From Spirochaetia bacterium (GTDB lineage: Bacteria > Spirochaetota > Spirochaetia > UBA9216), in assembly GCA_965140585.1 (NCBI GenBank), contig OZ223270.1, positions 160,001-224,000 on the forward strand: DNA of 64,000 nucleotides. The letters are read 5' to 3'. Shown piece after piece: positions 8,183-34,891 of the stretch (positions are counted from its first letter, which is position 1; each line of letters opens with the position of its first letter). Both the position numbers and the translations under genes were made by a program. The notes under the pieces were generated by a model. The model made no database searches, was not told the DNA's origin, and was given only the letters and a program-made list of their open reading frames with translations.

Positions 8183-8195
8183 ATCTTCACCCATG

Positions 8196-8477
8196 CTAAT
8201 GATAATCTGTTATTTCTACATCACTTGCAGAACCGTTACTCCAATGAAAGCATATTCTCCATTGATTATTTATTCTTATGCTATATTGGCCCTTCCTATT
8301 TCCAGTTAATTGTTCTAAATAATTTCCCGGAGGAACTCTTAAATCAATTACATCTTTCGCTCGATGAATCATGATAAGCTTTCTCAAATCTATTCTCTGA
8401 ATATCTTTAGGAAATCGTTTTGAATAAATTTCTTCCCAGATTTTTCTGGTTTCTTTATCTTTAAATGATTCAATCAC
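8196..8477 (-). CDS. higB: HigB family toxin (RelE/ParE superfamily)
   Basis: IESFKDKET..LRVPPGNYLE.L.G.RKGQYSIRINNQWRICF..EITDYH; toxin precedes antitoxin; GTG start at 8477. Confidence 0.92.
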   Translation of the reverse strand: MIESFKDKETRKIWEEIYSKRFPKDIQRIDLRKLIMIHRAKDVIDLRVPPGNYLEQLTGNRKGQYSIRINNQWRICFHWSNGSASDVEITDYH

Positions 8478-8484
8478 TAAAAAA

Positions 8485-8519
8485 ATAATAACGCCTAACA
8501 TTATTAACGCCAAGAGTTA
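8485..8519 (-). promoter_or_regulatory. higBA promoter with two tandem operator-like imperfect palindromes
   Basis: TTGGCG-N17-TATTAT-7nt-GTG; TAACGCCTAACATTA (8489-8503) and TAACGCCAAGAGTTA (8505-8519). Confidence 0.6.
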
Positions 8520-8556
8520 ATATATTTTCGAATGTTAAAAAATCGAAGCCAACTAC

Positions 8557-8684
8557 TAAAAAATCAAAAGTGAGAAACTTTTGATTTTTATACCTTAGAT
8601 GTAAAGGAACAATATTTTTGCAATTTATTGCTAAAATATTGTTCAAGTTAAAAAATCAGAGCGTACCGGCTCTGATTTTTTAAC
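8557..8684. repeat. Three-hairpin dispersed element, copy A
   Basis: Stems 8559-71/8577-89, 8607-18/8633-44 and 8647-62/8669-84; linker ACCTTAGATGTAAAG at 8592-8606. Confidence 0.8.
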
Positions 8685-8707
8685 ACAATCCTAACAAATT
8701 TCTAACA
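8680..8707 (+). promoter_or_regulatory. Pho-box-like direct repeats upstream of pstC
   Basis: TTAACA, CTAACA, CTAACA at 8680, 8691 and 8702 (11-bp period), resembling PhoP/PhoB boxes; directly upstream of the pst-pho operon. Confidence 0.7.
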
Positions 8708-8761
8708 ATTCAAGAACGCTCTGCTAATAGTTTATACCTGCAAACTATTAGGAGATATATT

Positions 8762-9673
8762 TTGAAACAAAACTCTGATAACCAGAGAAAGATGCTTAAA
8801 GATATTGGCCGCAGAGCCGCACAGGAAAGAAGTGTTGAGATGATTCTTCTGGTCTGTGCGCTTGTTTCGGTTGTAAGCGTACTGTTCATATCGTTTTTCA
8901 TCTTTCAGAGAGGTCTTCCGCTTTTCAAGTCTGTCGGCGTCTTTGAGTTTCTGCTCGGAACTGACTGGTCACCTTCAAATGATACAAATCCTTCGTACGG
9001 AATACTTCCTTTTATTGTGGGATCGATATATGTAACCCTCGGCTCACTCGTACTGGCGGTTCCCATAGGCATTTTAACCGCTGTATTTATGGCTGAGATT
9101 GCAGGCACGAAGGTAGCAGACTTCATGAGAAGTGTTGTTCAGCTGCTTGCAGGAATACCCTCAGTCATTTATGGATTCTTCGGCGTTATAGTGATTTCAA
9201 AGTTCATACGTGAAACCTTCGGGGGTACCGGCTACAGCATGCTTTCGGGGTCCATCATCCTTGCAATCATGGTTCTTCCTACAATAATTAACATCACCGA
9301 GGTTTCTATAACTTCCCTTCCCCGAAACATCAAGGAAGGCTCACTTGCTCTCGGCGGTACAAGGTGGCAGACTATAATCAGGGTACAGATTCCGGCCGCT
9401 AAATCCGGAATAATTGCCGGGATTGTACTTGGTATGGGCCGGGCGCTTGGAGAGACAATGGCGGTTCTGATGGTTGCCGGTAATGCACCGATTATGCCGC
9501 AGGGACCTCTGTCCAAGGTGCGGACACTCACAATGAACATTGTAACCGATATGGGATACGCATCCGGAGATCATATGACGGCACTTTTCACAACGAGTAT
9601 CGTACTCTTCCTCTTCATCCTGATACTAAACCTTCTGGTCAACCTCCTGAAGGGCAAGGCGGAGGCCGTATAA
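8762..9673 (+). CDS. pstC: Phosphate ABC transporter permease PstC
   Basis: LAGIPSVIYGFFG and GRALGETMAV motifs; SD GGAG before TTG start. Confidence 0.95.
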   Translation: MKQNSDNQRKMLKDIGRRAAQERSVEMILLVCALVSVVSVLFISFFIFQRGLPLFKSVGVFEFLLGTDWSPSNDTNPSYGILPFIVGSIYVTLGSLVLAVPIGILTAVFMAEIAGTKVADFMRSVVQLLAGIPSVIYGFFGVIVISKFIRETFGGTGYSMLSGSIILAIMVLPTIINITEVSITSLPRNIKEGSLALGGTRWQTIIRVQIPAAKSGIIAGIVLGMGRALGETMAVLMVAGNAPIMPQGPLSKVRTLTMNIVTDMGYASGDHMTALFTTSIVLFLFILILNLLVNLLKGKAEAV

Positions 9674-11322
9674 TGAATGTAACTTTTCAGGCAGAACCGG
9701 TAGATTCCAAAAATATTTTAAATGATATTCTGAAACGCGAGAAAAAAAAGGCTGAAACAAACTATATAAAAACCAACCGGATGAACAACCTTGCAACAGG
9801 GCTGCTCTGGGCAGCGGCTATAGTGACCTTCGGAATACTGGTTTATATTCTAGGATTCATCCTTTACCGCGGTTTCCGTTCAGACAATATCCTTGAACAG
9901 GATCACGTGTACATCAAGACAACTGAAACTCCCCTGCCCTGGCTTGAAGGCGATTCAGTTGTAATAGTCAACAAGGATGTCAGGATAAAGGAGATAAGCT
10001 ACTCCGATTTAAGCGGGCTTATCGGCGGTAAGCCGTCAAACTGGGGAAATATCAACGAACAGGACCTTGACGTTTTTCCCTATCTCCCGGATGGCGCCGA
10101 AGGCAAGACGGGAAAGAATATGACCTTTATGCCCTCAACTGCTGACATCATAAGTGCGGTAGCATCCCAAAAGGGCGGACTGGGAATAATTTCAGCGGAT
10201 AACGCCGAAACATCGGATTTATCTGACGTCAGAATCCTTCCGGTTATTCCCTTCTCAATTGCTGTTAACAGCTCGGTCCTTGAGATTCAGAATAATATAA
10301 AGATAAGGTTTACCGATGAAGACGGACTCAAGGCTCTTTTCAGCGGAAAGATTACAAACTGGCAGGACGCAGGCGGCATAGACCTGGCGGTGACACCAAT
10401 AATCCCTCCGGCCGGCAGTAAGGAATACGATGAATATCTGAGGCTTACAGGCCTTACGGCGAAGTCACTTCCTGCAAATGCAGTAAAAAGCACTTCGGAT
10501 ACCGACTATATTGAAAAACTCAACAGCACAAGCGGAGCGGTTGGTCTTGTGTTCACCGAAACAGCGGATGAGCTCAAACTGGATATTCTGAATTACCAGT
10601 ACCGGAAAACCGGAATGAACCTGCAGTGGTGGTTTCTCTTTGAAGAACCCAAGCGAGCTGGCCGTGTCGGCGGTATTTCATCGATTGTAGTTAACACGAT
10701 TTACATGGTGCTTCTGACAGTCCTGTTTTCAACCCCGATAGGCATAGGGGCAGCTGTTTACCTCACCGAGTATGCAAAGCAGGGAATACTGATAAAAATA
10801 CTGAGACTCGGAACAGAGACTCTGGCCGGTATTCCGTCAATCATCTTCGGTCTTTTCGGCTTCATAGTCTTTGTAGGATACATGCACCTGGGAATAGGGC
10901 TGCTTTCAGGAACGCTGACTCTGACGCTTATGATTCTGCCGACAATCATCAGAACAGCGGAAGAGGCAATAAAGGGTGTTCCGCAGTCGTTCAGGGCCGG
11001 AAGCCTTGCGCTTGGAGCCGGCAAGTGGCAGACAATATACAAGGTTGTAATACCAGCCGCAGCACCGGGAATACTCACCGGCGTAATCCTTGCAATCGGA
11101 CGTGCGGTCGGCGAAACAGCAGCCCTGCTTTTCACTATGGGCTTTGACTACCGGAGGGCAGAAAACCTTTCAACATCAGCCCGTGTCCTCTCAACCCATT
11201 TGTACCAGCTTGTCAAGGAAGGTATTTCCTTTGACCGGGCATTCGCAACAGCAACAATCCTTATAGTGATAATTCTTATTGTTAACGTTCTTTCTACAAG
11301 ACTCATCAGAAGGAAATACTGA
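9673..11322 (+). CDS. pstA: Phosphate ABC permease PstA with a large inserted extracytoplasmic PstS-like region
   Basis: C-terminal LAGIPSIIFGLFG and GRAVGETA; ~240-aa insertion after TM1 containing GKPSNW and GKITNWQDAGG. Confidence 0.9.
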   Translation: MNVTFQAEPVDSKNILNDILKREKKKAETNYIKTNRMNNLATGLLWAAAIVTFGILVYILGFILYRGFRSDNILEQDHVYIKTTETPLPWLEGDSVVIVNKDVRIKEISYSDLSGLIGGKPSNWGNINEQDLDVFPYLPDGAEGKTGKNMTFMPSTADIISAVASQKGGLGIISADNAETSDLSDVRILPVIPFSIAVNSSVLEIQNNIKIRFTDEDGLKALFSGKITNWQDAGGIDLAVTPIIPPAGSKEYDEYLRLTGLTAKSLPANAVKSTSDTDYIEKLNSTSGAVGLVFTETADELKLDILNYQYRKTGMNLQWWFLFEEPKRAGRVGGISSIVVNTIYMVLLTVLFSTPIGIGAAVYLTEYAKQGILIKILRLGTETLAGIPSIIFGLFGFIVFVGYMHLGIGLLSGTLTLTLMILPTIIRTAEEAIKGVPQSFRAGSLALGAGKWQTIYKVVIPAAAPGILTGVILAIGRAVGETAALLFTMGFDYRRAENLSTSARVLSTHLYQLVKEGISFDRAFATATILIVIILIVNVLSTRLIRRKY

Positions 11323-11325
11323 TTT

Positions 11326-12093
11326 ATGGAGAATACAATGACTGATAATAAACTGTCCGTTATGGACCTCGATTTCTTTTACGGAGATTTCAAGGCGCTG
11401 CACGGCATTTCAATGGAGATAGAGCAGAATAAGGTGACAGCCCTGATAGGCCCTTCAGGCTGCGGAAAGTCAACCTTCCTAAAAACCTTGAACCGGATGA
11501 ACGACCTTGTTGTCGGGTCAAAGGTAGACGGAACTATTCTTTATGACGGCGAGGATATCTACGGAAAGTATGATATAATTCAGCTTAGAAAGAAGATTGG
11601 AATGGTGTTTCAGAGCCCCAATCCCTTTGCAATGTCGATATTTGACAACATAGCCTACGGTCCCAGAATCCACGGGATAAAAAACCGTAAGGTTCTTGAT
11701 GAGATAGTTGAGAAAAGCCTTTCACAGGCGGCAATATGGGATGAGGTAAAGGACAGGCTTAACAAGCCGGCACTTGGACTTTCCGGAGGCCAGCAGCAGA
11801 GGCTCTGTATAGCCAGGGTTCTTGCTGTTGAACCTGATGTCATTCTTATGGATGAGCCTACAAGCGCCCTCGATCCGATATCAACATCAAGAATTGAGGA
11901 CCTGGTTGATGAACTTAAACAGGACTATACCATCGTAATAGTCACTCACAACATGCAGCAGGCGGGAAGGATTTCAGACTATACAGCCTTCTTTCTGCAC
12001 GGATACCTTGAAGAAATGGGACCGACAGAGCGTATCTTCTTCAATCCTGAAAGCAAAAAAACAGAAGATTATATATCAGGCCGATTCGGCTGA
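11326..12093 (+). CDS. pstB: Phosphate ABC ATP-binding protein
   Basis: [22 protein letters not shown] and C-terminal [10 protein letters not shown]. Confidence 0.97.
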
Positions 12094-12108
12094 TATCCGG
12101 AGTAAAAA

Positions 12109-12768
12109 ATGAGTAAACCGAGATTACATTTTTCAAATGAAATGACAAACCTTAACGATCAGATCCTTCTGATGGGTACATATGTTGAAGAGGCATTGAA
12201 GAAATCTATAGAGGCTCTGAAAAACCAGGACGAAGTTCTGGCTGATCAGGTAATAAACGAAGACGAAAAAATAAACATTATGGAAACAGCCCTGTTCGAC
12301 AAGGTTTCAATAATCCTTGCAACCGAACAGCCTGTAGCAACCGACCTGAGGCATCTGACCGGCGCCATCAAGATAATTACAGATCTTGAGCGGGCGGGCG
12401 ACTATGCTGTTCACATAGCAAAGGGTGCAAAGCGGCTTTCAAAAGAAAACTACATTGCTCCAATCCAGCAGATTCCTGAAGCGGGGGAAACGGCACGGGG
12501 AATGCTCAGGGATGCGCTTACAGCCTTTGTAAACATGGATGAAGAGCTTGCAAGAGATGTTGCTGCAAGGGATGATGCCCTTGATAAAATCCACAAGAAG
12601 CTTCTGAAAAAGATGCTGAAATATATGAATAAAGAAGATGAAGCCAATATCGAACAGGCTACAAACTTGATCTTTCTGGCAAGATTTCTTGAACGCCTCG
12701 GCGATCATGTAACCAATATCTGCGAATGGGTGGTTTATACAAAAACCGGCCATCATGTTGAATTATAG
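12109..12768 (+). CDS. phoU: Phosphate signalling complex protein PhoU
   Basis: QPVATDLR, DLERAGD and LERLGDHVTNICE motifs. Confidence 0.95.
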   Translation: MSKPRLHFSNEMTNLNDQILLMGTYVEEALKKSIEALKNQDEVLADQVINEDEKINIMETALFDKVSIILATEQPVATDLRHLTGAIKIITDLERAGDYAVHIAKGAKRLSKENYIAPIQQIPEAGETARGMLRDALTAFVNMDEELARDVAARDDALDKIHKKLLKKMLKYMNKEDEANIEQATNLIFLARFLERLGDHVTNICEWVVYTKTGHHVEL

Positions 12769-12780
12769 CAGGAGGTTGAA

Positions 12781-13470
12781 ATGCCCGGTGAAAAAATCCT
12801 TGTAATCGAGGATGAACAGGACATTAGAGAACTGATAGCCTTCAATCTTGAAAACGAAGGCTATAAAATTCTGAAAGCTGCTACCGGTATTGAGGGCCTT
12901 GAAAAGGCAAGAAAGCATGCGCCCGATCTGGTACTGCTTGATATAATGCTGCCTGACGTGGACGGCCTTGAAATATGTAAAAAACTAAAACGCGATGAGA
13001 CAACCTCCGATATTCCTGTAATTATGCTGACCGCAAAATCAGAGGATTCGGATATCATTTCAGGACTGGAGCTTGGAGCTGACGACTATATAACAAAACC
13101 CTTCAGCCCACGGGTCCTGCTTGCCCGTATAAGAACAGTACTCCGGAGGAACACCGACGGGGAAGATGACGGGAACCAGCTGATCCGGGTCCATGAAATA
13201 CAGATAGATATAAAAAAGCACGAAGTCCTCAGCAGCGAAGAAGATGTGAATCTTTCGGCAACCGAGTTTGCAATCCTCAGCCATCTCGCATCCAATCCGG
13301 GATGGGTGTTTTCAAGAAACCAGATAATTGACGCAGTACGCGGACAGAACTATCCGGTTACAGAGCGCTCTGTAGATGTACAGATTCTGGGAATCAGGAA
13401 AAAGCTCGGATCTCAGGGCAGATATATTGAAACCGTCCGCGGAGTCGGTTATCGTCTGAAGAGTGACTGA
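12781..13470 (+). CDS. phoB: PhoB-like OmpR family response regulator
   Basis: REC domain (LLDIMLP, GADDYITKPF) plus winged helix (IETVRGVGY); pst context. Confidence 0.9.
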   Translation: MPGEKILVIEDEQDIRELIAFNLENEGYKILKAATGIEGLEKARKHAPDLVLLDIMLPDVDGLEICKKLKRDETTSDIPVIMLTAKSEDSDIISGLELGADDYITKPFSPRVLLARIRTVLRRNTDGEDDGNQLIRVHEIQIDIKKHEVLSSEEDVNLSATEFAILSHLASNPGWVFSRNQIIDAVRGQNYPVTERSVDVQILGIRKKLGSQGRYIETVRGVGYRLKSD

Positions 13471-13471
13471 T

Positions 13472-13617
13472 CCAAATTTAAAACGCGGTTGGTTTTAAAT
13501 TTGGCTTTGAAGATTTTTGATGTTAAGTAAATATAAATACTTGAGTGAACCTATGCAAAAATCTTCATTTACATCCAAGGTAAGAATAATAAAAGTCGCT
13601 AACTTTTATTATTCTAA
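13472..13617. repeat. Three-hairpin dispersed element, copy B (inverted relative to A and C)
   Basis: Stems 13472-84/13492-504, 13508-19/13556-67 and 13583-96/13602-15; linker TTTACATCCAAGGT at 13568-81. Confidence 0.8.
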
Positions 13618-13641
13618 ATTTTTCTTACAAAAAGGACACGA

Positions 13642-15411
13642 ATGAAAAAGCGCCCTCTATTCCGGCAGAGCTTTCTGGTACTGATGCTGATGATGCTCAT
13701 CGCGATAGTACCTATAGCCGTCTTCAACACCTATAACTTTAAAACCTTTTATTACAGTGAAACCGAAGAATACCTGAAGGAAAGCTGTATCCTGCTAAAA
13801 AATGTTTTTCCGCAGAGCCTTGCATCAACCGACATAGCGGGAATCGAGAAATTCGCGTACACGGCATCCAGCGAAACCGACATGCGTGTTACCATCATAA
13901 ACGAAAACGGACTCGTGCTGGCCGATTCCCAGAACGACCCTGACAGCATGAACAACCACGCAGACCGGCCGGAGGTCTCTGCAGCTCTTTCCGGAAACTA
14001 CGGGTCCTCAACCCGCAACAGCGCAACCATGTCTTTTGAAATGATGTATTCGGCCGTTCCGGTAAGCTTCAGTGATTCGACCAACGGTGCCATCAGGCTT
14101 GCACGTTCACTTGAAGACATCGACTCAAGATTGTCACTCATAAACCGGAGCGTTGTAATACTGAGCATCATTCTTTTTATAGCGGTCGGAGTTCTCAGCT
14201 ACATCCTTGCCGGCTGGGTAAGCCGGATAATCAATGAACTCAAGCAGACCGCGGCAATGTACGCGGCCGGTGATTTTTCAAAAAAGCTGTTTATTGAACG
14301 CCCTCAGGAAATTTCCGAACTCTCGGATGATATCAACTCGATGGGTATGCAGCTGCAGGATCGTATAAACAAGGTTGAAACACAGAAAAACGAGCTTCAG
14401 CTGATTCTCAACAATATGACAGAACCGGTTCTCTTCACCGACAGAAGGCTGCATATACTCAGGATTAATTCGGCCGCGGAAACGCTGTTTCATTTTAACG
14501 AAGAGAACGACAGAGGCAGAAGCATTCTTGAACTTTTCCGGAACTCGGATCTGAATAACTTCGCACAGAGTATGGTTGAGACAGGAACCTCGAAAACAGA
14601 AATTATCACCCTGGATCTTCCCCGACCTGCTCACCTTGAAATTCACGGAACCGTGGTTAAGGATGCCGAAGGGGAAGTAAGCGCCCTTCTGCTTGTAATG
14701 CACGACATCACCCGGATGAAACAGCTGGAACAGATGCGCAAGGATTTTGTAGCCAATGTATCACACGAACTTAAGACTCCGGTCACGATGATTAAGGGAT
14801 ATATTGAAACCCTGCTGGACAGCATGTCCCCGGAGGAAGGTGAAAATAACACCATTAAATTCCTGGGAATCATGGAGAAGCACTCTTCCAGAATCGAGGC
14901 TATTATCGATGACCTGCTTCTGCTCTCGGGTATAGAAAAAAATGACGGAAATGCTCCGCTTTTTGAAGAGATTCCTGCAATAGACCTGCTCACAAGCGCG
15001 GTTACCAGCTGCGAGCCCAGAGCCGAGGATAAAAATATAAAACTTAAAATGAACTGCCCTGAAAACATCATTCTGAGGGTTCACCCCCTGCTTGCTGAAC
15101 AGGCTGTAATAAACCTGATCGACAATGGAATTAAATACAGCGGAACTAATACCGAGATAAAGGTTTCTGTAAAACAGAATGATGAAGGCAAAACCTGTAT
15201 AAGTGTTAAGGACCAGGGCTGCGGAATATCGCAGGAAGATCAGGAACGGATTTTTGAAAGGTTCTACCGCGTAGACAAGGCGCGCAGCAGGGAATCAGGC
15301 GGTACAGGCCTGGGGCTGTCGATAGTCAAGCATATTGCCCTCAGCCACAACGGAAGCATCTCGGTTGAGAGCACTCCGGGAAAGGGCTCAACTTTTACTA
15401 TCTGCCTGTAG
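13642..15411 (+). CDS. phoR: PhoR-like sensor histidine kinase (HAMP, PAS, HisKA, HATPase)
   Basis: FVANVSHELKTP, NLIDNGIKY, FERFYRVDKARSR and GGTGLGL motifs. Confidence 0.92.
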   Translation: MKKRPLFRQSFLVLMLMMLIAIVPIAVFNTYNFKTFYYSETEEYLKESCILLKNVFPQSLASTDIAGIEKFAYTASSETDMRVTIINENGLVLADSQNDPDSMNNHADRPEVSAALSGNYGSSTRNSATMSFEMMYSAVPVSFSDSTNGAIRLARSLEDIDSRLSLINRSVVILSIILFIAVGVLSYILAGWVSRIINELKQTAAMYAAGDFSKKLFIERPQEISELSDDINSMGMQLQDRINKVETQKNELQLILNNMTEPVLFTDRRLHILRINSAAETLFHFNEENDRGRSILELFRNSDLNNFAQSMVETGTSKTEIITLDLPRPAHLEIHGTVVKDAEGEVSALLLVMHDITRMKQLEQMRKDFVANVSHELKTPVTMIKGYIETLLDSMSPEEGENNTIKFLGIMEKHSSRIEAIIDDLLLLSGIEKNDGNAPLFEEIPAIDLLTSAVTSCEPRAEDKNIKLKMNCPENIILRVHPLLAEQAVINLIDNGIKYSGTNTEIKVSVKQNDEGKTCISVKDQGCGISQEDQERIFERFYRVDKARSRESGGTGLGLSIVKHIALSHNGSISVESTPGKGSTFTICL

Positions 15412-15424
15412 ACTCAGAGACGGC

Positions 15425-16228
15425 TCAGAATACCAGAAAGCCGCCGTTTTTAAGAGTCTGCTTGTTATAGGGAAATTCGCTGCCGTCAAGGCTGGTACAG
15501 CTGCGGCCGGCACCCTCTACTACTGCATGGGCGGCGGCGGTGTCCCACTCCATTGTGGGGCTGAAGCGGGGATAGATATCGGCGGTTCCTTCTGCGATCA
15601 TGCAGAACTTGAGACTGCTTCCGGCTGTAATGATTTCAACAGAACTGCAGCCCTTTTCTTTTGCCCAGTCATTTACAAACTTGTCAAATTCTTCACTGCG
15701 ATGGGAACGGCTTCCTGCTGCAACAAGTACATCATCACGCCGGTTAATTGATTCATCCGGCAGCTGAACCGAATTCACGGCTTTTCCGTTTTTAACATCA
15801 GCGCGGAAACTACCGGTCGGCTCAGAACCGTAATAAACAACTCCGGTAACAGGAACATAGACAATACCGGCATAAGGCCGGCTGCTTTTCATAAGGGCTA
15901 TATTGACTGTAAACTCACCGTTCTTTTTTACAAATTCCTTGGTACCGTCCAGTGGATCTATCAGCCAGTAATAATCCCAATACTGTCTTTGCGTGTAAGG
16001 GGCAATATCTCCCTCTTCAGAAATGAGCGGGATGATTCCGCCTTCAACTTTTATCGTTTCAAGCCTGCTGCAGATGTACTCATGAGAAGCCTGATCGGCC
16101 CGGGTAAGCGGGGAATTATCCTCTTTCATTTCAACAGGAAAATCCCTGCTGTAAACATCAAGAATAAGTTCACCTGCATGAGCGCAGATTGAAACAAGGG
16201 TGTCGAAGATATTATTCAAATTTTCCAT
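15425..16228 (-). CDS. cysQ: 3'(2'),5'-bisphosphate nucleotidase CysQ
   Basis: KEDNSPLTRAD, WLIDPLDGTKEF, GSSLKFC and EWDTAA motifs; start taken at M23 of the ORF. Confidence 0.93.
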   Translation of the reverse strand: MENLNNIFDTLVSICAHAGELILDVYSRDFPVEMKEDNSPLTRADQASHEYICSRLETIKVEGGIIPLISEEGDIAPYTQRQYWDYYWLIDPLDGTKEFVKKNGEFTVNIALMKSSRPYAGIVYVPVTGVVYYGSEPTGSFRADVKNGKAVNSVQLPDESINRRDDVLVAAGSRSHRSEEFDKFVNDWAKEKGCSSVEIITAGSSLKFCMIAEGTADIYPRFSPTMEWDTAAAHAVVEGAGRSCTSLDGSEFPYNKQTLKNGGFLVF

Positions 16229-16241
16229 AAATCGGGAAAAA

Positions 16242-16598
16242 TCAGTCTTCAAGCTCCATATAAGTTGCAATCTTCTCAAGTTTTCGCTCAACAAGAACTC
16301 TGACAGCCCCGGGAAGTCCCGCAGCCTTCATTTCATTAATAAAGTAGTTCTCGATATAGGCTCTGAGTTCATTAACATTTTCACTTTCAGCCTTGGCTTT
16401 TTCCACGGCCTTGGAAACATTTTCAAGCCCTAGAACTTCTCTTTTCAGAAGGCTGGTATTCTCTAGAAAAACATATTCGGTTATTTCATGTTCATCAAAC
16501 CGGCGTTTCATATTTTCTTCATTGAATTCAATGTCATATATCAGATCTTCAAGCTCGATTTTTAGTATCTCGAGATATTTCTTCATTTTGTTGTCCAT
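16242..16598 (-). CDS. Hypothetical alpha-helical protein
   Basis: 118-aa ORF with GGAGG upstream, co-oriented with cysQ. Confidence 0.75.
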   Translation of the reverse strand: MDNKMKKYLEILKIELEDLIYDIEFNEENMKRRFDEHEITEYVFLENTSLLKREVLGLENVSKAVEKAKAESENVNELRAYIENYFINEMKAAGLPGAVRVLVERKLEKIATYMELED

Positions 16599-16668
16599 AT
16601 TTAAACCCTCCGTTTAAAGTATATATACACTGTTATCTGATCGCAATAAATGATAATATACAGATTAT

Positions 16669-17907
16669 ATGAATGCGCCGAGATTGTCTGCATTTTTTTT
16701 CAGTTTAGCCTTACTTCTTGCCTACCCTGCTTCAGCATCCGGAGCTGATAATTCCGGAACCCTCATCATCAAAAACAGAGAACTTACCAGGGTTATAGTC
16801 TCCACCGACAACATCACCGACAAGGGGCTTGCTCTTTTACTAAACGGAACAGGCGAACTGAAGGCTGTCTCAGAAAGTCAGTCATATACCGCCTCTTTTT
16901 CCTCGGGCAGCAGGCCGGTAAAAATCTCACTGTACCCCTCTCTGCTGGGATTTTTCCCTGATAACGTTGAGATACAGAGCTCCGGTACAGAGTTTGATCT
17001 GCTCTCATCAGAGGTATTCGATATTGACGGTGAAACACCGCTGGATGCCGATATTGGCCATATAATTTTCTCGGATTTTTCTCCGCGCGGGGGACATGAC
17101 TGGGAAGTGTACCGCTGGAACCTCTACCCGGACATACTGATTTTCGATACCGAGAACTATGAAGCACAGGCAAGACTCTTTAAGAGGCTTGCATTCTTCG
17201 TTGAAAAGCCGGGTTTCGTGGGAACCATTGTATCAAACGAGGGTCTCGAAGGCCGTCACGGCTGGAATGCACATGATTACCGGCCCGAAGATCTGGCCGA
17301 TTTTTTCAACAAGGCTATGGAAACACCGGAGATACTGAACACCGAAGAGATATACCTCCGCGACCTGCTTGTATCCGAAGGTATTTTGATAGATTTGAAT
17401 GGAACATACAGAGCAGGAAAGGGAGCTGTGCTGTCAGTTTCAAGGGAATCACTGCCTGACTGGCGCTACCGTTTTTTAACTCATGAATGTCTGCACGGAA
17501 TTTTCTTTACCGATCCTGATTTCAGGGCGCAGTCAGAGAGGATTTTCTTCAGCATGCAGCCGGATGAAATTACCTTCTGGAAAAAACTTCTGGATTACCG
17601 TGGATACGACGTGAGCAATGACTACCTGCTGGTAAACGAGTTTATGGCTTACATACTGCAGCAACCCTTTGAGGATATCAACGACTATTTTAAAACCTTT
17701 CTCTATGTACGCATGACCGCGGCCAGACCCTATGAAACAGGTTTTGTCGAAACTTTTGAAAGGAACTATCCGGATTCTTTTATCAATTCAACCGAAAACA
17801 TGTCCGCTCTGCTGTACAGCAAATGCGGGAGGACAAGCGGCCACCTATCCAATCTAATCCCGGACAGCATGGGGGATGGTTTCTTCAATTTGTTTCCGGT
17901 ATACTGA
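16669..17907 (+). CDS. Secreted hypothetical protein, putative zinc metallopeptidase
   Basis: Signal peptide ending ASA; THECLHG (HExxH) and downstream NEFMAY. Confidence 0.65.
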   Translation: MNAPRLSAFFFSLALLLAYPASASGADNSGTLIIKNRELTRVIVSTDNITDKGLALLLNGTGELKAVSESQSYTASFSSGSRPVKISLYPSLLGFFPDNVEIQSSGTEFDLLSSEVFDIDGETPLDADIGHIIFSDFSPRGGHDWEVYRWNLYPDILIFDTENYEAQARLFKRLAFFVEKPGFVGTIVSNEGLEGRHGWNAHDYRPEDLADFFNKAMETPEILNTEEIYLRDLLVSEGILIDLNGTYRAGKGAVLSVSRESLPDWRYRFLTHECLHGIFFTDPDFRAQSERIFFSMQPDEITFWKKLLDYRGYDVSNDYLLVNEFMAYILQQPFEDINDYFKTFLYVRMTAARPYETGFVETFERNYPDSFINSTENMSALLYSKCGRTSGHLSNLIPDSMGDGFFNLFPVY

Positions 17908-18003
17908 TACAGCAATAGTGTTAAAAAAAAGTAAAAAGATTGAATTTCGAAATTATCGGGAATATAATTACGACCTAATCTGTCAATCTGGAGATAGCTG
18001 ATA

Positions 18004-18939
18004 ATGTCTGCACCAAAAAAATGGATACCGGCCCGCAAAAGTCATCTGCTCTACTATGATGATATTCCGCTGTATTACCGAACACCAAGCGGAAATATAA
18101 CATTGTACAAGCCGGCAGGAATGTCGTTTACCCACGAAAGCCTGGAAAGAAAATATGCAATCGACGAGTTCTTCATACATCCCGACAACAGACTGGAAAG
18201 TATTGAAGCAGCTCAGCGCGGATTTCAAAAGAAACTTGAAACAACCAAAGACATCACAACAGTAAAGGATTCCCTTGTTGATCTTGTAGAGGAAACACTG
18301 GCAGCCCCAAGGGCCGGAGGTCTTAAACGGGCTCCGAATACGGTTAACCATCTTATCGATGGATTTTCATTACAGCCCAATGTCCTCAAGAATTTCGCAA
18401 GAATGTCCTTCAACGACTACACAACCGCCCTGCATTCAGTCAATGTTATGGCTCTGACAGTGGGATACTGTTACTACATTTCGCTTACAGAAGAGGAAAC
18501 CAAAAAACTCGGCCTGGCAGCCCTGCTTCATGATGTTGGAAAGACCGAGGTTCCGAATTACATCCTCAAGGCCAGCCGAAGACTCACTGATGAGGAATTT
18601 GACAAGATAAAATCTCATACGACTCTCGGCTTTGAGATCCTTCAGCTTTATTCGGATGAGGATTTCTCCGAGATAGCACTTGCCAGCAAGGAGCACCATG
18701 AAAAGCTGGACGGCTCCGGGTATCCTGAAGGAAAAACCGACATATCATATATGGGAAGGGTTCTGGCTATTATCGATTGTTATGAAGCTATTACCAATGA
18801 CGACAGGCCTTACAGGACAGCGCTGAGCCCGCTTAACGCGCTTGAGCTGATAAAGAAGGATGTTGATCAGGGAAAACTTGACAGAGCCATATTCAAGGAT
18901 TTTGCCTACAGCCTTACGAACTTTAAAAATAAGGCTTAA
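18004..18939 (+). CDS. HD-GYP domain phosphodiesterase
   Basis: ALLHDVGK, HHEKLDGSGYP and RPYR motifs. Confidence 0.92.
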   Translation: MSAPKKWIPARKSHLLYYDDIPLYYRTPSGNITLYKPAGMSFTHESLERKYAIDEFFIHPDNRLESIEAAQRGFQKKLETTKDITTVKDSLVDLVEETLAAPRAGGLKRAPNTVNHLIDGFSLQPNVLKNFARMSFNDYTTALHSVNVMALTVGYCYYISLTEEETKKLGLAALLHDVGKTEVPNYILKASRRLTDEEFDKIKSHTTLGFEILQLYSDEDFSEIALASKEHHEKLDGSGYPEGKTDISYMGRVLAIIDCYEAITNDDRPYRTALSPLNALELIKKDVDQGKLDRAIFKDFAYSLTNFKNKA

Positions 18940-18981
18940 AAATAAAAAAAGGGGGGGCAGCCGCAAAAAAGCTGCCCCCTG
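18940..18981. terminator. Terminator between convergent genes
   Basis: GGGGCAGC-loop-GCTGCCCC preceded by an A-run. Confidence 0.7.
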
Positions 18982-18986
18982 ATATT

Positions 18987-19433
18987 CTAAAATGCGCCCA
19001 GCTGGCAGCTGTGTATCTTTATCGACATCAAATCACAGACAGCCGCAGCCTGAGCCTTGGTAGAGCCGGCTTTTTCCGCAGCCGTCCAGAGAGTACGGCA
19101 GCTGATACCGCCGTTCCGCGAGTCCTCCTCAATTATTTCTTTGAGTACATCCACATCATCCTCAGAAGGCAGGGTTTTATCGACCTCATCCTTATCTTTG
19201 CCGAACAGTCCAAGCTGACAGCCTATGATTCTGATCTCAAGAAGATCCATGTTCCTGCCGGTTTCAGCCGGGCTCACACCCAGTTCCGACGCAATCCGGT
19301 GGGCTGTAGTACAGCTTAACCGTCCATTTTCGGCTTCTGCCTTCAGCACTTCAGCAATCCGCTCATTCAAGGCTGATTTGTCCGGATGTTTTCCGGCGTA
19401 ATTTCCTTCGTCCTGATGCATTTCATCCTCCAT
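18987..19433 (-). CDS. Hypothetical protein with a duplicated Cys-containing domain
   Basis: Two repeats of the form xSC..A...A...G.......D...I.I..CQLG.F; start uncertain. Confidence 0.75.
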   Translation of the reverse strand: MEDEMHQDEGNYAGKHPDKSALNERIAEVLKAEAENGRLSCTTAHRIASELGVSPAETGRNMDLLEIRIIGCQLGLFGKDKDEVDKTLPSEDDVDVLKEIIEEDSRNGGISCRTLWTAAEKAGSTKAQAAAVCDLMSIKIHSCQLGAF

Positions 19434-19434
19434 G

Positions 19435-22400
19435 TCAGAGATCCCAGCTGTTTTCAACGAAACTGCCTTCTTCTCCGTTTTTAGTTACTGTAATGAATGT
19501 ATCTATTTCCTGTTTAAGCTCCTGTACGTGTGAAATCACACCTACGGTTCTGTTTTCATGTTTAAGTGATTTAAGGCTGTCAAAGACAAGTTCAAGAGAC
19601 TCCCTGTCCAGAGAACCGAAGCCCTCATCGAGAAAGAAGAACTCAGCCTTTCCCTTCTCCATGTTGTCGGCAAGAGCGAGTGCAAGGGAAAATGCCGCCT
19701 GAAAAGTCTGTCCGCCGGAAAGGGTCTTTACTGATCTTGTTTTTCCGTCATTGAGATAGTCCCGTATGATGAAGTTATTTGATTCATCAAGCTCAATCCG
19801 AAGTGATTCACGTGTCAGTATACGAAAGCGGCTGTTTGCAGAGTTACAGAGTTCCTTGAGGTAGACTGTCGCAACATAATCGACAAACTTGTTTCCCTGA
19901 AGCATAAACTTCAGCAATTTCAGATTTTCAGCCCTGGTATCAAGCTCCTTTTTCTGCTTCAAAAGCTCAGTCTTTTTTTCAAGATCGGCAGCAGCCCTTT
20001 TAAGCTCGGATTCATAACGCCCCGCATCACCTGACAGCCTCTGAACCTCCTGCTTCAGTTGAGTATTACGCATTTTTTCGGCCTGAAAGGCATCCTCATC
20101 AAAGCTTTCTCCCAGGGTAAGTTCTTTAAGATGCGCAATCCTTGCCGAAACCTCTTGAAAGGCTTTCTCAAATTCCTGAACCCGGCTTCGAATTACCTCT
20201 ATTTCAGAAGCGCGGCTTAGAATTGCAGAAACCTCTTCGATTGAATCGGCCTTTTTCTCTTCAAGCATTTCATTTATCTTCTTTCTGAGTTCCGATATTG
20301 CAGCCTCTGTTTCAGAGAGCCTGGCCGACAGTTCTGATTTTTTGGAGTCAAGCCCGGCAGCAAGGGCCGTCAGTGATTCACGTTTTTCAGAAAGCCTCAT
20401 GTAATTATCCGAAATATTTTTTATGTTTTCATCATTTTCTCTCTGCAGCTTCTGAAGCACTTCCGTTCCGGAAGCGGAATGCACTTTTATGAAACCGGAA
20501 TCAATTCTTTCTTCGATACTTTCAATTCGGGCTGCTATTGCTGACCGGCTGTTCCTGAGCTCGGCAAGTTTTCCTGCGGCAGTCTCAGTTGCGAAACGAA
20601 GTTTCTCCATGTCAGCATTAATCCCGGACTGCGCACGTCTGATATCTTCCGTCCGTTTCTGATTATCAAGAAACCTGCGGTATTCCTGCCGGAAACCATC
20701 AGGATCAGAAGAATCGAACCTGTCGGAACTGAATGAAGCTTCAAAATCAAGGATAGCTGCCGATGCAGCAGCTGCTTCCCCGCGGCATTCGGCCGCAGAG
20801 GTCTCTGCAGATCGGAGGGAAGCACTCAGAGCTGTCAACTCAGTTTTAAGCCTTTCAAGAGCCGCTTTTCGCCTGCTCAGGGAATCTGCGGCTCCGGTCA
20901 GGGTATCTCCTCCGGATTGGGAGATTCCGGCGGGTGCCGGATGTTCGGTAGAACCGCAGAGTGGACAGGGTTTACCATCCTGAAGAGATGAACTGAGTCT
21001 TGCCATCTCATTCCGGACAGCCTCTTCTTTCTGCTTCTCCCGCAGAGCAAGATCCTCCCTGGACAGCCTCTCCTCAGCATCGGAGACAGCAGACAGCGCC
21101 TCATCTACTGAATGGATATCCGGAAATTTAAAGCCGGAGTTCTCAGCAGCTTCCCCGGAAATCATATGAAAAAACTCATCTTCATTCTGTTTCTGCCGAT
21201 TTACAACCGCAGCCAGTCTTTCAAGCACAGCTTTCTCAGTATCCTTAAGAGCATCCATCTTTGAATACCACTCAGAAAGACCGCTCATCTGCTCGGCAGT
21301 ACCGGACTGCTGCAGTCCTTCAAGTTCGCTGTTCAAATTATCAAGCTCAGATTTAAATGCAGCAATTTTTTCAGCTGATTCCGCCGGAAATTTCTCAGCT
21401 GTCGATATATTAGAATCAAGCTGTTTAAGTTCAGCCCTGAAGCTCTGAAGCTCCAGGAGACCCTTAACCCATTCCGTTTTCTTTTTATAGTCATCAAGCT
21501 GTTCGTACTGCGCTCCTGCTTTTTCAAAAGCGGTATTCAGCTCAATCCGTTCCGATGTAATTTTCTGTATTTCTTTCTCAGCTTCTGAAAGCTGGGCAGC
21601 AGACCGATTCTCTTGTTTTTCGAGGTATGCAAGACGCTCAAGATCCGATTTAAAATATTCAACATAGATCTGATAAGCGGAAATGAGCTTTTTTTCTTCA
21701 TTGATATCAGAAGCTCTGGAGTCGAGCTCCTTTTTCTGAATCTCGTATCCCGAGAGCTCTGCGAAGCGTTCGGCCAGGCCCTTCATGCGCTCAAAGGCTT
21801 CACTGCTTTTATTAAAATCAACCTGTGCTTTCTCCAGCAGAGCGATGTTCGCTTCAGCCTCTACCTTCAGTTTTTCCAAATCCTCTTTGGAGATACTCTC
21901 AAGGCCGCTGAGGGCACCGTCAATTCCAGCAGCTTCCTTGCTGGTGCGGGAAGCAAGTATAGAAGCTCTGCCGAAAAGGTCAAAGCGACCGAGGCTGAAA
22001 AGATCCTTGAGCATGCTGGTTCGCTCGTTTTTTCCCAGATGAAGAAACTCCTGAAACTGCCCCTGCGGAACAATCACCGCGCGGCGGAAGCTGTTGTAAT
22101 TCATTCCAAGGATGCCCTCAGCTGAAACTTCATTAGTTTTATCGAAAAGAGGAATCCAGCTACCATTATCATCTCGATAAGCCGACCGCTCCGGCGTTTC
22201 AATTTTATCGAAAGTCTTCTTATTTCTTTTAACATCGAAGGTAAACCGGTAACGGCAGCCTTCATGACCGAAAATAAAATCAATACTCATAGTAGACGAT
22301 CTGAGATTCATCATATTATAAGTTCGGTTAGGCTTATCAAGTCTTACAATCTCACCGTACAGGACGAAGGTTATCGCCTCAAGGATAGCCGACTTTCCGC

Positions 22401-22515
22401 TGCCGACACTTCCGAATATACCAAACAGATCAGCTTCGGTGAGCCTTGTAAAATCAATCTCAGTCCTGCTGCGGTAGGAGTAAACACCCTCAAGAATAAG
22501 TTTTTCAGGTCTCAT
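19435..22515 (-). CDS. sbcC: SbcC (Rad50-like) ATPase
   Basis: GSVGSGKS, PQGQF, zinc hook CPLCGS, LSGGQ and FFFLDEGFGSLD. Confidence 0.95.
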   Translation of the reverse strand: MRPEKLILEGVYSYRSRTEIDFTRLTEADLFGIFGSVGSGKSAILEAITFVLYGEIVRLDKPNRTYNMMNLRSSTMSIDFIFGHEGCRYRFTFDVKRNKKTFDKIETPERSAYRDDNGSWIPLFDKTNEVSAEGILGMNYNSFRRAVIVPQGQFQEFLHLGKNERTSMLKDLFSLGRFDLFGRASILASRTSKEAAGIDGALSGLESISKEDLEKLKVEAEANIALLEKAQVDFNKSSEAFERMKGLAERFAELSGYEIQKKELDSRASDINEEKKLISAYQIYVEYFKSDLERLAYLEKQENRSAAQLSEAEKEIQKITSERIELNTAFEKAGAQYEQLDDYKKKTEWVKGLLELQSFRAELKQLDSNISTAEKFPAESAEKIAAFKSELDNLNSELEGLQQSGTAEQMSGLSEWYSKMDALKDTEKAVLERLAAVVNRQKQNEDEFFHMISGEAAENSGFKFPDIHSVDEALSAVSDAEERLSREDLALREKQKEEAVRNEMARLSSSLQDGKPCPLCGSTEHPAPAGISQSGGDTLTGAADSLSRRKAALERLKTELTALSASLRSAETSAAECRGEAAAASAAILDFEASFSSDRFDSSDPDGFRQEYRRFLDNQKRTEDIRRAQSGINADMEKLRFATETAAGKLAELRNSRSAIAARIESIEERIDSGFIKVHSASGTEVLQKLQRENDENIKNISDNYMRLSEKRESLTALAAGLDSKKSELSARLSETEAAISELRKKINEMLEEKKADSIEEVSAILSRASEIEVIRSRVQEFEKAFQEVSARIAHLKELTLGESFDEDAFQAEKMRNTQLKQEVQRLSGDAGRYESELKRAAADLEKKTELLKQKKELDTRAENLKLLKFMLQGNKFVDYVATVYLKELCNSANSRFRILTRESLRIELDESNNFIIRDYLNDGKTRSVKTLSGGQTFQAAFSLALALADNMEKGKAEFFFLDEGFGSLDRESLELVFDSLKSLKHENRTVGVISHVQELKQEIDTFITVTKNGEEGSFVENSWDL

Positions 22516-23772
22516 TCATCATCCTCCCCGAGCGCAGAAAGCTCACCAAAAAGCGTCATCAGTGCTTCATCTGGAGGACTTCCCTTCACTGCCTCAAAAT
22601 AGGATGAAAAAAGTTCCGGTACGGATTTACCAAGATCCGGAAGGCTTTCCGAAGACTGCGTGCCGATGCCTTCATCAATCTCAAGCTCAGGAATCAAAGC
22701 AGTAATACCCGGGTGCAGGCTGTACAGCATCTTCCGCTCATCGGCGCTTATCCATGACTCGCAGCGGACGATAAGCTCAACATAGCAGTCCTGGTTTTCC
22801 TTCAGCCAGGCTTCGGCTTCACTGATTCCGGGAAACCGCTTTCTGAGAATCCGCTTTCCCGATCTAACAGGGATTTTTTCAACCACGGCTTTTGCGCCGG
22901 GCTTAGCATCAATAAGTACAGCATACTTCTGCTGGTTTTCCTCGCTGAGTCCGAAAGCAAGCGGACTGCCTGAGTACACTGCAGGGGCTCCGGACGGCGT
23001 GTTAATCTCAGAGAAGCGATGAAGATGCCCGAGGGCTGTATACTGAATCTGCGGAGGCACCAGAGCGGCGTCAATCATTTCAAGCCCGCCGGGATGAAGG
23101 ATTGAACGCTCTCCCTCAGGTTCGGGATTCTCCGGCAGTTCTTCACTGAAAAGCGGTCCGATCTCCGAGCCTGCACTCATAAACAGGTGTGCTGCAAGAA
23201 TATTTACAGCCTTATCATCACAGGTACTTATCAGCAAGCTCCTTCCAGAGCTGTCCGAGAACCTCTGAAATTTTCTGTTCACGGTCTTCAGCACCGAGAT
23301 ATCTTCGAAGCCTGTTTTCATTCGCATAGGCTGTAGTAATGATCCGTGCCTTTTCACCGCCGGCAGTTTCTACTTCAAGGATTCCTCGATCGGGAAAGCT
23401 GATATGTGTTCCGCATTCGAGTACTGTCTCTTTTTTCTGCATCTCGGGGTAGCCCACAAAGAAAATACCGCATTCAGCGGCGAGGGGGTCCGGAGCCTCG
23501 ATGCGGTCTGGTGAATCATGGTTGCCCGCAATAGCAATTACCGGCCGTCTGCCGTCATCGGAAAGTTTTTTCAGCTCCCGGTAAAGCAGTTCGGCAGCTT
23601 CAACCGGAGGGTTAAAGGTATCAAAAAGATCACCTGCAACAATAACCAGCGATACATCATTCTGTTCCGCAATTTGCTTTATCTCTTCGAGGACCTCTTT
23701 CTGTTCATCTATCCTGCTGTAATCTCCAAGTCTGGCTCCGAGGTGCCAGTCCGACGTATGTAAAATCTTCAA
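22512..23772 (-). pseudogene. sbcD: SbcD nuclease, split by a +1 frameshift near 23223
   Basis: Frame 1 has ILHTSDWH, GDLFD and GNHDS; frame 2 has AAHLF, ALGHLH and YSGSP; junction TAC-C-TGT. Confidence 0.85.
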
Positions 23773-23796
23773 TAGGTGCTCCGGATTTTTTCAATT

Positions 23797-23947
23797 AGGG
23801 AAAATCAAAAATCGGGGATTTTTGATTTTCCGACCTTAATGTAAATGAAGAAAATTTTACAAGCTGAACTAAATCAGGAATTTGAATATTTATGTAAAAT
23901 TTTGCTTCTGAACATCTTTCAAAACTAACCAAGTCTTGAAAGATGTT
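23797..23947. repeat. Three-hairpin dispersed element, copy C
   Basis: Stems 23799-813/23817-31, 23847-61/23893-908 and 23911-26/23932-47; linker ACCTTAATGTAAAT at 23833-46. Confidence 0.8.
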
Positions 23948-24032
23948 ACATTATACCTTTATTTTTTCCTTTCTGTGAATAAATGATTTATAAAGATGTA
24001 TTTATGGATGTCACAAAAATCGAGGTAATCAG

Positions 24033-24770
24033 ATGATAGAAATCAATGAAATCAGTAAAAGCTATTCAAAGGGCACGGTTAAAGCGGTCGACGGCCTGAA
24101 TCTCACAGTTGAACCGGGCCAGATTTTCGGTTTTCTCGGCCCCAACGGAGCAGGAAAATCAACAACAATTAAAATGCTTGCAGGCCTGCTGAACCCTGAC
24201 ATCGGAAAGCTTAAACTCTGCGGGATCGATATCGTGCAAAAACCCATTGAGGCAAAGAAGCTTATCGGATACGTACCGGATGAACCGGTATTCTATGACA
24301 AAATGAGCGGCCTAACCTTTCTCAAGTTCATTGCTGATATTTATGACTGCGATGAAAAACAGAGAGAAGCAGCCCTTGGCACAGCAGCTGAGTTCGGTCT
24401 AGAAGACAAGCTTTCCGAGCTAATCTCATCCTACTCTCACGGGATGAAGCAGAAACTTTCAATAACCGCAGCCCTCATGCATGAACCTGAAGTGTTTATA
24501 CTCGATGAGCCTATTTCAGGACTCGATCCCCAGTCGGCCTTCGTCTTAAAAACAAAAATGAGGGAACTCTGCGATCTGGGCAAAACGGTATTCTTCTCAA
24601 CCCATGTAATGGAAGTAGCCGAAAGAATCTGCGACCGGGTCGGAATAATTAGCCACGGAAAGATCAGGGCACTCGGCCGGATGGATGAGATTAAGACCGG
24701 AGCACAACCCGGCGATACTCTCGAAAAAATATTCCTGGAGCTTACAAATGAAAACAGCAGCACTGATTAA
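24033..24770 (+). CDS. ABC transporter ATP-binding protein
   Basis: GPNGAGKS, YSHGMKQK, ILDEP motifs. Confidence 0.93.
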   Translation: MIEINEISKSYSKGTVKAVDGLNLTVEPGQIFGFLGPNGAGKSTTIKMLAGLLNPDIGKLKLCGIDIVQKPIEAKKLIGYVPDEPVFYDKMSGLTFLKFIADIYDCDEKQREAALGTAAEFGLEDKLSELISSYSHGMKQKLSITAALMHEPEVFILDEPISGLDPQSAFVLKTKMRELCDLGKTVFFSTHVMEVAERICDRVGIISHGKIRALGRMDEIKTGAQPGDTLEKIFLELTNENSSTD

Positions 24771-34652: not shown

Positions 34653-34654
34653 GT

Positions 34655-34742
34655 AGGTACAATTTACCATGATATGGTTATTCTGACCAGTATTATTTTA
34701 TGAATTTGGTATATTTTACCATTTTATTGGTTTATTTCGCCA
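34655..34742. promoter_or_regulatory. Four PspF UAS-like palindromes
   Basis: (A/T)GGT-N7-(A/G)CCA at 34655, 34675, 34707 and 34728. Confidence 0.7.
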
Positions 34743-34891
34743 AATTCCTCCCTGGGGGGGTAACAGAACCAGCCCCGGAAGCTGTTTAAATAGGGACGGA
34801 AAGACTGAAAATGAGCTATAAAAAGCCCAAACAAACAGTCATTGGATTAATTTTATTGAATTTTCAGAAGATTCCGGGCTAATTCCAAAAA

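Follow-up and report, generated by a model that had tools for sequence, protein, structure and literature searches.

A three-hairpin intergenic repeat with a conserved unpaired linker in the genome of a Spirochaetia bacterium

REP sequences are described as single palindromes of 20-40 bp that carry a GTAG or CGTC tag at one end, and roles in DNA structure and in mRNA stabilisation are given there for REP sequences and BIMEs (PMC3733652). The bcr1 element of the Bacillus cereus group is depicted as a dispersed, intergenic and transcribed repeat of ~155 bp, which forms independent stem-loops with compensatory changes and is flanked by 5-bp direct repeats; the same source mentions stem-loops of IS200/IS605 ends in Borrelia that are found apart from the transposase gene (one type of them with compensatory changes), as well as MITEs such as Correia/nemis, which are intergenic and can form RNA hairpins (PMC3184786). 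Here we describe an intergenic element present in three copies in a 64-kb stretch of DNA of a Spirochaetia bacterium (contig OZ223270.1, positions 160,001 to 224,000; the whole stretch is referred to below as the window). The element is best classed as a dispersed, non-coding, non-autonomous intergenic palindromic repeat of the kind known from other bacteria. It is 125-150 bp long and contains three AT-rich hairpins (HP1, HP2 and HP3) per unit. What sets it apart is the conservation of the unpaired spacer (linker) between HP1 and HP2, while the helices are free to change.

With REP sequences and BIMEs the element shares short extragenic palindromes dispersed between genes, in operons and between convergent or divergent genes. 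However, it differs from REP in having three palindromes (31-62 nt) per unit with AT-rich stems that differ between copies, in its conserved part, which is an unpaired block of 14-18 nt, and in the absence of a RAYT gene from the window. BIMEs are mosaics of several palindromic units with conserved non-palindromic motifs between them. The element has three palindromes and one conserved spacer of 14-18 nt, but its palindromes are not conserved in sequence, unlike BIME units. REP sequences and BIMEs typically occur in tens to hundreds of copies per genome, and REP sequences are associated with a RAYT (Y1 HUH) transposase gene that is flanked by copies (a REPtron). It is similar to bcr1 in size, intergenic dispersal and compensatory pair changes (in HP1), whereas bcr1 has two stem-loops and the element has three together with the conserved linker, and no flanking direct repeat was found at the copies. 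The Borrelia stem-loops come, like the element, from a spirochaete host, and the two are likened here by description only. Y1 HUH transposases read their ends as a hairpin plus an adjacent single-stranded recognition/cleavage sequence; among the 61 open reading frames (ORFs) of the window there is neither such an IS200/IS605 transposase nor a remnant of one. MITEs such as Correia/nemis can carry promoters and resemble the element in their size range (100-150 bp) and intergenic position, but they have terminal inverted repeats (TIRs), target-site duplications and near-identical copies, whereas the copies of the element are barely alignable beyond HP1, the linker and the foot of HP2.

A homologous family with covarying stems

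The three-hairpin intergenic repeat with its conserved unpaired linker is a real, well-defined and homologous family (Table 1), and all conclusions presented here rest on its three copies in this one window. If each copy is read in the ACCTT orientation of the linker, the order is HP1, linker, HP2, a spacer of 2-3 nt and HP3 in all three cases. HP1 has an A-rich 5' arm and a T-rich 3' arm and is separated by 1-2 bases from the invariant block ACCTT-(A/G)-(G or gap)-ATGTAAA-(G/T). The foot of HP2 opens with GAA(C/G) and closes with (G/C)TTC, where G-A-A/T-T-C is constant in all copies. The linkers ACCTTAGATGTAAA (copy 1) and ACCTTGGATGTAAA (copy 2) match the 14-mer exactly, and ACCTTAATGTAAA of copy 3 is one base short.

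The gapped pattern ACCTT-N(0-3)-ATGTAAA occurs three times in the window as compared to 0.03 expected occurrences, and none of 100 shuffles reached this count. The ungapped 14-mer with up to two mismatches is weaker evidence than the gapped pattern (three matches vs. 0.84 expected), and one of its matches is a two-mismatch site inside a gene, at 22229. The copies fold with z-scores from -5.8 to -10.6 in either orientation, and no shuffle out of 200 folded as well. Furthermore, all hairpins of 12 or more pairs with no more than one mismatch and a loop of 3-12 nt were counted over the full 64 kb. Of the ten hairpins of this type, seven belong to the three copies and another is located 36 nt from copy 1; the remaining two are ordinary gene-end hairpins at 41933 and 43363. 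A covariance model was built from HP1, the linker and the 5' arm of HP2 and run on the window with filters off. It scored the copies at 84.5-90.4 bits and the best site elsewhere in the window at 14.4 bits. All other matches of 17 bits or more fall inside the same three elements, where they correspond to the reversed HP1 and to the reversed HP3 side (17-24.7 bits). As a control, 100 of the at least 119 unrelated loci with a chance exact match to the 18-nt linker (see below) were scored, the best of them at 34.7 bits. This model, with filters off, detected no fourth copy in the window; nor did a script that allowed up to four linker mismatches next to a hairpin, which returned, apart from the copies and matches overlapping them, only two sites within genes, each with 8 pairs and four linker mismatches.

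The stems have diverged while their pairing was kept. In HP1, six of the 15 pairs are changed on both sides and eight never vary, and 43 of the 45 cells of the alignment are paired. Shifting the 3' partners by 1-3 columns leaves only 44-64% of the cells paired and 0-1 doubly changed pairs; six doubly changed pairs were reached by 4 of 500 shuffles. In the HP2 foot, copies 2 and 3 have G-C as the fourth pair, where copy 1 has C-G. Past this pair, the 5' arms of HP2 share ATTTTTGCA or ATTTTACA at shifted positions, and the 3' arms shift to match. Note that HP1 is the only hairpin that aligns unambiguously and that covariation was counted for HP1 and the HP2 foot only: MAFFT gave no usable registers, whether applied to the entire element or to HP2 or HP3 separately, and beyond HP1, the linker and the foot of HP2 there is little in the copies that can be aligned. 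The HP3 register of copies 2 and 3 is ambiguous, with 5-7 identical pairs of 10-12 depending on the offset, and therefore no covariation is claimed for this hairpin; the HP3 loops of these two copies both include AACC. Covariation seen in three sequences is suggestive rather than statistically strong.

The three copies had been noticed earlier in a reading of the bare sequence. This original prediction located all of them correctly and described their layout, the conserved linker, the diverging but still paired stems and the effectively unrelated HP3 sequences in a way that our analysis bears out, as it does the claim that they form one homologous family. The covariance-model scan proposed there, when run on the window, made the copies stand out and found nothing further.

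Table 1. Positions of the element copies and their parts in the window. Hairpin sizes are numbers of perfect Watson-Crick pairs counted from the foot.
Feature	Position	Strand	Description
Copy 1	8559-8684	+	intergenic
Copy 1 HP1	8559..8589	+	13 perfect pairs, A-rich 5' arm, loop GAGAA
Copy 1 linker	8590..8606	+	unpaired; AT + ACCTTAGATGTAAA + G
Copy 1 HP2	8607..8644	+	38 nt, simple hairpin; GAAC...GTTC foot, 12 pairs, T/T mismatch, 4-pair tip
Copy 1 HP3	8647..8684	+	16 perfect pairs, G+C core, A6/T6 at foot
Copy 2	13472-13615	-	intergenic, inverted
Copy 2 HP1	13583..13615	-	14 perfect pairs
Copy 2 linker	13567..13582	-	unpaired; ACCTTGGATGTAAA at 13568-13581
Copy 2 HP2	13509..13566	-	58 nt; GAAG...CTTC foot, 11 pairs, 36-nt variable interior with small sub-hairpin
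Copy 2 HP3	13472..13504	-	13 perfect pairs
Copy 3	23799-23947	+	intergenic
Copy 3 HP1	23799..23831	+	15 perfect pairs, loop GGG
Copy 3 linker	23832..23846	+	unpaired; G + ACCTTAATGTAAA + T, 1 base shorter than in copies 1 and 2
Copy 3 HP2	23847..23908	+	62 nt; GAAG...CTTC foot, 4 pairs, single A/G mismatch, ~11 further pairs beyond it (fold), branched variable interior
Copy 3 HP3	23911..23947	+	12 perfect pairs; 15 with one G-U on the other strand
TGTAAA/TTTGCA-TTTACA inverted repeat, copy 1	8600-8622
TGTAAA/TTTGCA-TTTACA inverted repeat, copy 2	13551-13573
TGTAAA/TTTGCA-TTTACA inverted repeat, copy 3	23840-23861

Tests for described families and searches outside the window

At gathering thresholds, Rfam 15 gave no match at the three copies, and with relaxed E-values the best matches there reached 15-23 bits (22.5 at the highest) as compared to gathering scores of 40-230. 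Hence no Rfam family matches, including the known self-cleaving ribozyme classes in Rfam, in line with the novelty assumed in the original prediction. A search of each copy plus 6 nt on either side for REP tags revealed no GTAG, CGTC or GACG; a lone CTAC is present at 8553, 6 nt from copy 1. Comparison of the first 35 nt with the reverse complement of the last 35 nt gave a terminal-repeat score of 10 for copy 1 (5.9 +/- 1.2 in shuffles, 4 of 500 as high), 9 for copy 3 (22 of 500 as high) and 5 for copy 2 (485 of 500). No target-site duplication was found at the copies, as the flanks share only 4-nt words at inconsistent offsets; at copy 3, the 7-nt word ATTTTTT lies 14 and 13 nt off the two ends. 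In a scan of 8000-25000 for intrinsic terminators, none of the nine element hairpins was listed. HP3 of copy 1 is the only one with a G+C core and T6, and this T-run is part of the extended stem; a clear terminator at 18979-18953 is G+C-rich, unlike the AT-rich hairpins of the element.

Several other ideas were checked by eye against consensus sequences, without formal tests, and dropped. These were an IHF site, a CsrA site (GGA is present in copy 2 only), sigma-54 -24/-12 spacing, sigma-28 and ECF boxes, a dif/Xer site (ATGTAAA alone resembles a XerD arm, and a XerC arm is absent), integron attC core sites and a peptide or small ORF across the linker (its ATG is directly followed by TAA).

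A search of genome contigs with the 18-nt linker returned at least 119 loci, all of them single chance matches in unrelated organisms. No HP1-like hairpin adjoins the matches listed, the best upstream hairpin having 8 pairs vs. 13-15 in the true copies, and the flanks of the best 40 of the at least 119 loci look like coding sequence. A 20-bp perfect hairpin in a Sphingobacteriaceae assembly (L027, 116-161) shares 13 nt of its arm (GAAAATCAAAAAT) with HP1 of copy 3 and scores 31.4 bits in the covariance model; we rejected it as a relative, because no linker adjoins it, and it is probably a low-complexity coincidence. In a plasmid collection, blastn with copy 1 gave short AT-rich matches only (best E = 0.4), among them one of 47 nt and 81% identity (E of 0.4 or weaker) on a Borreliella plasmid, and tblastn with SbcC gave 161 records, all below 60% identity, with no related spirochaete replicon. 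No other repeat family related to the element was found in the window.

Genomic setting of the copies

The three copies occupy different kinds of site: between divergent promoters (copy 1), in an operon after a stop codon (copy 2), and between a gene start and a promoter-like site (copy 3). Copy 1 has the toxin-antitoxin genes higB/HTH (minus strand) on one side and pstC (plus strand) on the other. Upstream of pstC there are three [T/C]TAACA repeats (TTAACA, CTAACA and CTAACA at 8680, 8691 and 8702, 11 bp apart), the first of which overlaps the last five bases of copy 1 HP3. This stretch (8680-8707) fits the PhoB/PhoP-type consensus and looks like Pho boxes of the pstCAB-phoU-phoBR cluster. 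On the other side of copy 1 from pstC, a promoter-like site precedes higB (8513-8485). Copy 1 probably lies outside both flanking mRNAs, because it is situated between the pst Pho boxes and this site. In the toxin-antitoxin pair itself (HigB-like toxin and HTH_3 antitoxin, 7889-8513, minus strand), higB probably starts with the GTG at 8477 or the ATG at 8503 and not with the TTG at 8513. A further hairpin (8720-8755; 13 pairs, loop of 8), 36 nt after copy 1, does not belong to the repeat family; its 3' arm includes the AGGAGA ribosome-binding site of pstC (TTG start at 8762), and it may control pstC translation.

Copy 2 fills most of the 171-nt gap between genes for a phoB-like response regulator and a phoR-like kinase. 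Its HP3 starts 2 nt past the phoB-like stop codon (13468-13470) and its HP1 ends 27 nt before the phoR-like start codon. Without the copy, the spacer would measure ~25 nt, a geometry that resembles an insertion at a site where it is tolerated. Copies 1 and 2 are mutually inverted and bracket the Pho boxes and the genes pstC-pstA-pstB-phoU-phoB, with their HP3 sides facing inward. The statement of the original prediction that the flanking genes share no function does not apply to these two copies, both of which flank the pst/pho set.

Copy 3 lies between the start of sbcD (TTG at 23772, preceded by GGAG), 26 nt from which its HP1 ends, and a gene for an ABC-transporter ATPase. Of the promoter-like sites in the 17 kb scanned, the best (TTCACA-18-TATAAT, 11/12, minus strand, 23979-23950) sits just outside HP3 of this copy and is directed through the element at sbcD. 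The HP1 side faces a gene start in all three copies; divergent genes flank copies 1 and 3, which leaves copy 2 as the sole informative case in this respect. The sbcD gene (22512-23772, minus strand) consists of two overlapping ORFs in different frames, of which 23772-23218 matches residues 1-90 and 23357-22512 residues 200-324 of solved SbcD structures. The split of this gene for a hairpin-cutting nuclease beside copy 3 would be due either to a frameshift or to a sequencing error.

The window has a G+C content of 40-50%, and its CTP synthase (PyrG) is 84-87% identical to proteins of Spirochaeta sp., Spirochaetales and Spirochaetia. The only Rfam match in the window at gathering thresholds is a Moco riboswitch (50541-50666, minus strand; 64.8 bits vs. 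a gathering score of 36) directly upstream of a gene of the aldehyde dehydrogenase family (49102-50550), whose start it overlaps. A family B DNA polymerase gene (28360-30702) and, separately, a gene for a sigma-54 activator divergent from pspA-pspB-pspC (33591-36231) have no link to the repeat.

DNA palindrome or structured RNA

When the copies are folded as RNA, G-U accounts for 2 of the 149 pairs of one strand and for 3 of the 148 pairs of the opposite strand, and the minimum free energies of the two strands (-51.3/-47.7, -40.7/-42.1 and -46.8/-51.0 kcal/mol) do not consistently favour either of them. Among the six HP1 pairs with compensated changes, two show the flip from A-T to T-A, which has no wobble intermediate. 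In structured RNAs, G-U pairs usually make up a noticeable fraction on the strand that is transcribed. The near-pure Watson-Crick, strand-symmetric pairing of the element looks like that of DNA palindromes. In all three copies, TGTAAA of the linker and TTTGCA or TTTACA of the HP2 5' arm make up a 6-bp inverted repeat, 8-11 nt apart (Table 1). Its pairing in the ACCTT orientation includes U-G in copies 1 and 2, which would be a C-A mismatch on the other strand. This inverted repeat could represent an alternative helix competing with HP2 or two back-to-back -35-like boxes. As a possible alternative helix it is the sole strand-specific hint that we found, pointing to the ACCTT orientation; as the copies are homologous, it counts as a single observation.

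We tentatively favour the interpretation of the element as a REP/BIME- or bcr1-like palindromic mosaic that acts mainly as DNA and in which the linker is a protein recognition site, although we would call it the leading possibility rather than a probable one. This preference is based on the strand symmetry, the scarcity of wobble pairs, the fact that copy 1 lies outside obvious transcripts, the insertion-like geometry in an operon spacer that is normally short, and the precedents with compensatory stems, i.e., bcr1 and the IS200/IS605-end stem-loops in Borrelia (PMC3184786). In such a repeat, the palindromes would extrude as hairpins in single-stranded DNA or as cruciforms, and their arms would stay complementary through templated correction between the arms and/or selection for extrusion. 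The linker and the HP2 foot would be recognized by a protein encoded elsewhere in the genome, e.g. an enzyme of strand cleavage or strand transfer by which the element spreads, or a DNA-binding protein that is nucleoid-associated or structure-specific. Where the element is transcribed (copies 2 and 3, TTTACAT orientation), its hairpins might secondarily function as REP-like mRNA punctuation, those of copy 2 protecting the 3' end of phoB, with 5' hairpins placed before phoR and sbcD. Templated correction between arms, as in quasipalindrome mutagenesis, can keep palindromes perfect. Of the selection on structure postulated in the original prediction, the kept pairing stands, and such correction at the DNA level is an alternative to selection as its cause.

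Several points speak against the interpretation as a DNA mosaic. Variable helices on either side of a long, unchanging single-stranded block are the classic mark of functional RNAs as well, and the HP2 interiors of copies 2 and 3, which are non-palindromic and partly branched, look more RNA-like as well. The templated correction of the arms is only inferred. The hallmarks of REP sequences and MITEs (tag, target duplication, consistent terminal inverted repeat) are missing, and the copies are far more diverged than the usual members of an active mobile family. Only three copies are known, all from one 64-kb window, and a Pfam scan of its 61 ORFs revealed no transposase, Y1/HUH, IS91, reverse transcriptase or integrase domain. 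Consequently, the single-stranded DNA/HUH mechanism that the original prediction had considered finds no evidence here, as there is no such domain among these ORFs, no tag and no target duplication. The element might also be the substrate of an undescribed mobilisation or processing system, in which the invariant linker of 14-18 nt, kept single-stranded between two hairpins that are required but free in sequence, is cut or bound by a dedicated enzyme; this could be a new HUH-type or other single-stranded DNA nuclease or transferase, or an RNA endonuclease. We regard this as unlikely.

The element could instead be a structured RNA family, either a multi-copy small RNA with the linker as its seed or protein site, or a cis-acting mRNA stability module. 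In the latter version, the succession of hairpin, cleavable single strand and hairpin would uncouple the stability of neighbouring cistrons. The invariant unpaired block amid variable helices with compensated changes and the variable, branched HP2 interiors would suit such an RNA, as would the possible TGTAAA alternative helix in all three copies. Copy 2 lies within the pst-phoU-phoB-phoR string and would be transcribed if phoR is co-transcribed, and copy 3, downstream of the promoter-like site at 23979-23950, would be the sbcD leader or a transcript of ~145 nt. However, G-U pairs are nearly absent and the folding energy shows no consistent strand preference, copy 1 lies between two divergent promoter regions, no conserved promoter is found upstream in either orientation, none of the nine hairpins is terminator-like, and no Rfam family matches. 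The strand hints conflict too, as the promoter context points to the TTTACAT orientation and the alternative helix to the ACCTT orientation. A structured RNA thus appears to be a serious but rather doubtful possibility. We agree with the original prediction that a cis riboswitch is unlikely. Its ribozyme option, in which the linker would be the catalytic or recognition core of a novel self-cleaving ribozyme or of a mobile structured RNA, fares much worse, and we consider it highly improbable. Only the general shape, conserved unpaired nucleotides between variable helices, recalls a ribozyme, and a new class would be needed, since no known family is matched. The hairpins stand side by side without a junction or pseudoknot by which the linker could become part of a structured core, inspection by eye revealed no conserved complementarity between loops and linker, the pairing is strand-symmetric with almost no G-U, and no reverse transcriptase or other mobility gene is found among the 61 ORFs of the window.

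A portable insulated promoter, driving higB, phoR and sbcD in the TTTACAT orientation, was also considered. HP3 and HP2 would block incoming transcription, TTTACA of the linker would be the -35 box, and AAAAGT or AAAAAT in the 5' arm of HP1 a weak -10 box. In fact, this orientation aims at a gene start in all three copies, with the end of HP1 26-27 nt before the phoR and sbcD starts and 46-82 nt before the candidate starts of higB; all three copies share the spacing TTTACA-N16/17-AAAA(G/A)T, the site of copy 3 being listed by the promoter scan (9/12), and a separate phoR promoter would account for the unusually long phoB-phoR spacer. The orientation counts for copy 2 only, though, where it has one chance in two of arising at random; the -10 candidates of copies 1 and 2 are below the scan threshold (8/12 by our own count), and promoter-like sites in the region are no commoner than in shuffles (22 vs. 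24.5). Moreover, sigma-70 recognition would leave the invariant spacer bases TCYAAGGT and a perfect, covarying, palindromic -10 region unexplained, and higB and sbcD have better promoter-like sites (8513-8485 and 23979-23950). A promoter function therefore seems improbable to us. Finally, three independent clusters of terminator hairpins could share a short motif by coincidence. The hairpins have the A-tract/T-tract symmetry of bidirectional terminators, and in copy 1 the G+C core of HP3 precedes T6. But the linker is found three times vs. 0.03 expected, at constant spacing and each time flanked by the same two types of hairpin, the columns of HP1 correspond one to one and show compensated changes, and two of the three sites lie between divergent gene starts, where no terminator is expected. 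Linker count, HP1 covariation and covariance-model scores effectively refute a coincidence.

Described repeat families are almost nil for free-living spirochaetes. A full-text literature search found neither the linker 14-mers of copies 1 and 2 nor a pairing of Spirochaeta with miniature inverted repeats. Should the element prove to be just another selfish repeat of the REP type, its interest would be local only. If, on the other hand, it is the substrate of an undescribed system, the spirochaetes would have their own structure-defined class of repeats, distinct from REP/RAYT and from TIR-based MITEs. Structure is separated from sequence unusually cleanly in this element, which would make it a convenient model for how bacterial DNA keeps palindromes perfect and for which protein reads a single strand flanked by hairpins. 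With copy 2 between phoB and phoR and copy 1 abutting the pst Pho boxes, the element may shape the expression of the phosphate regulon.

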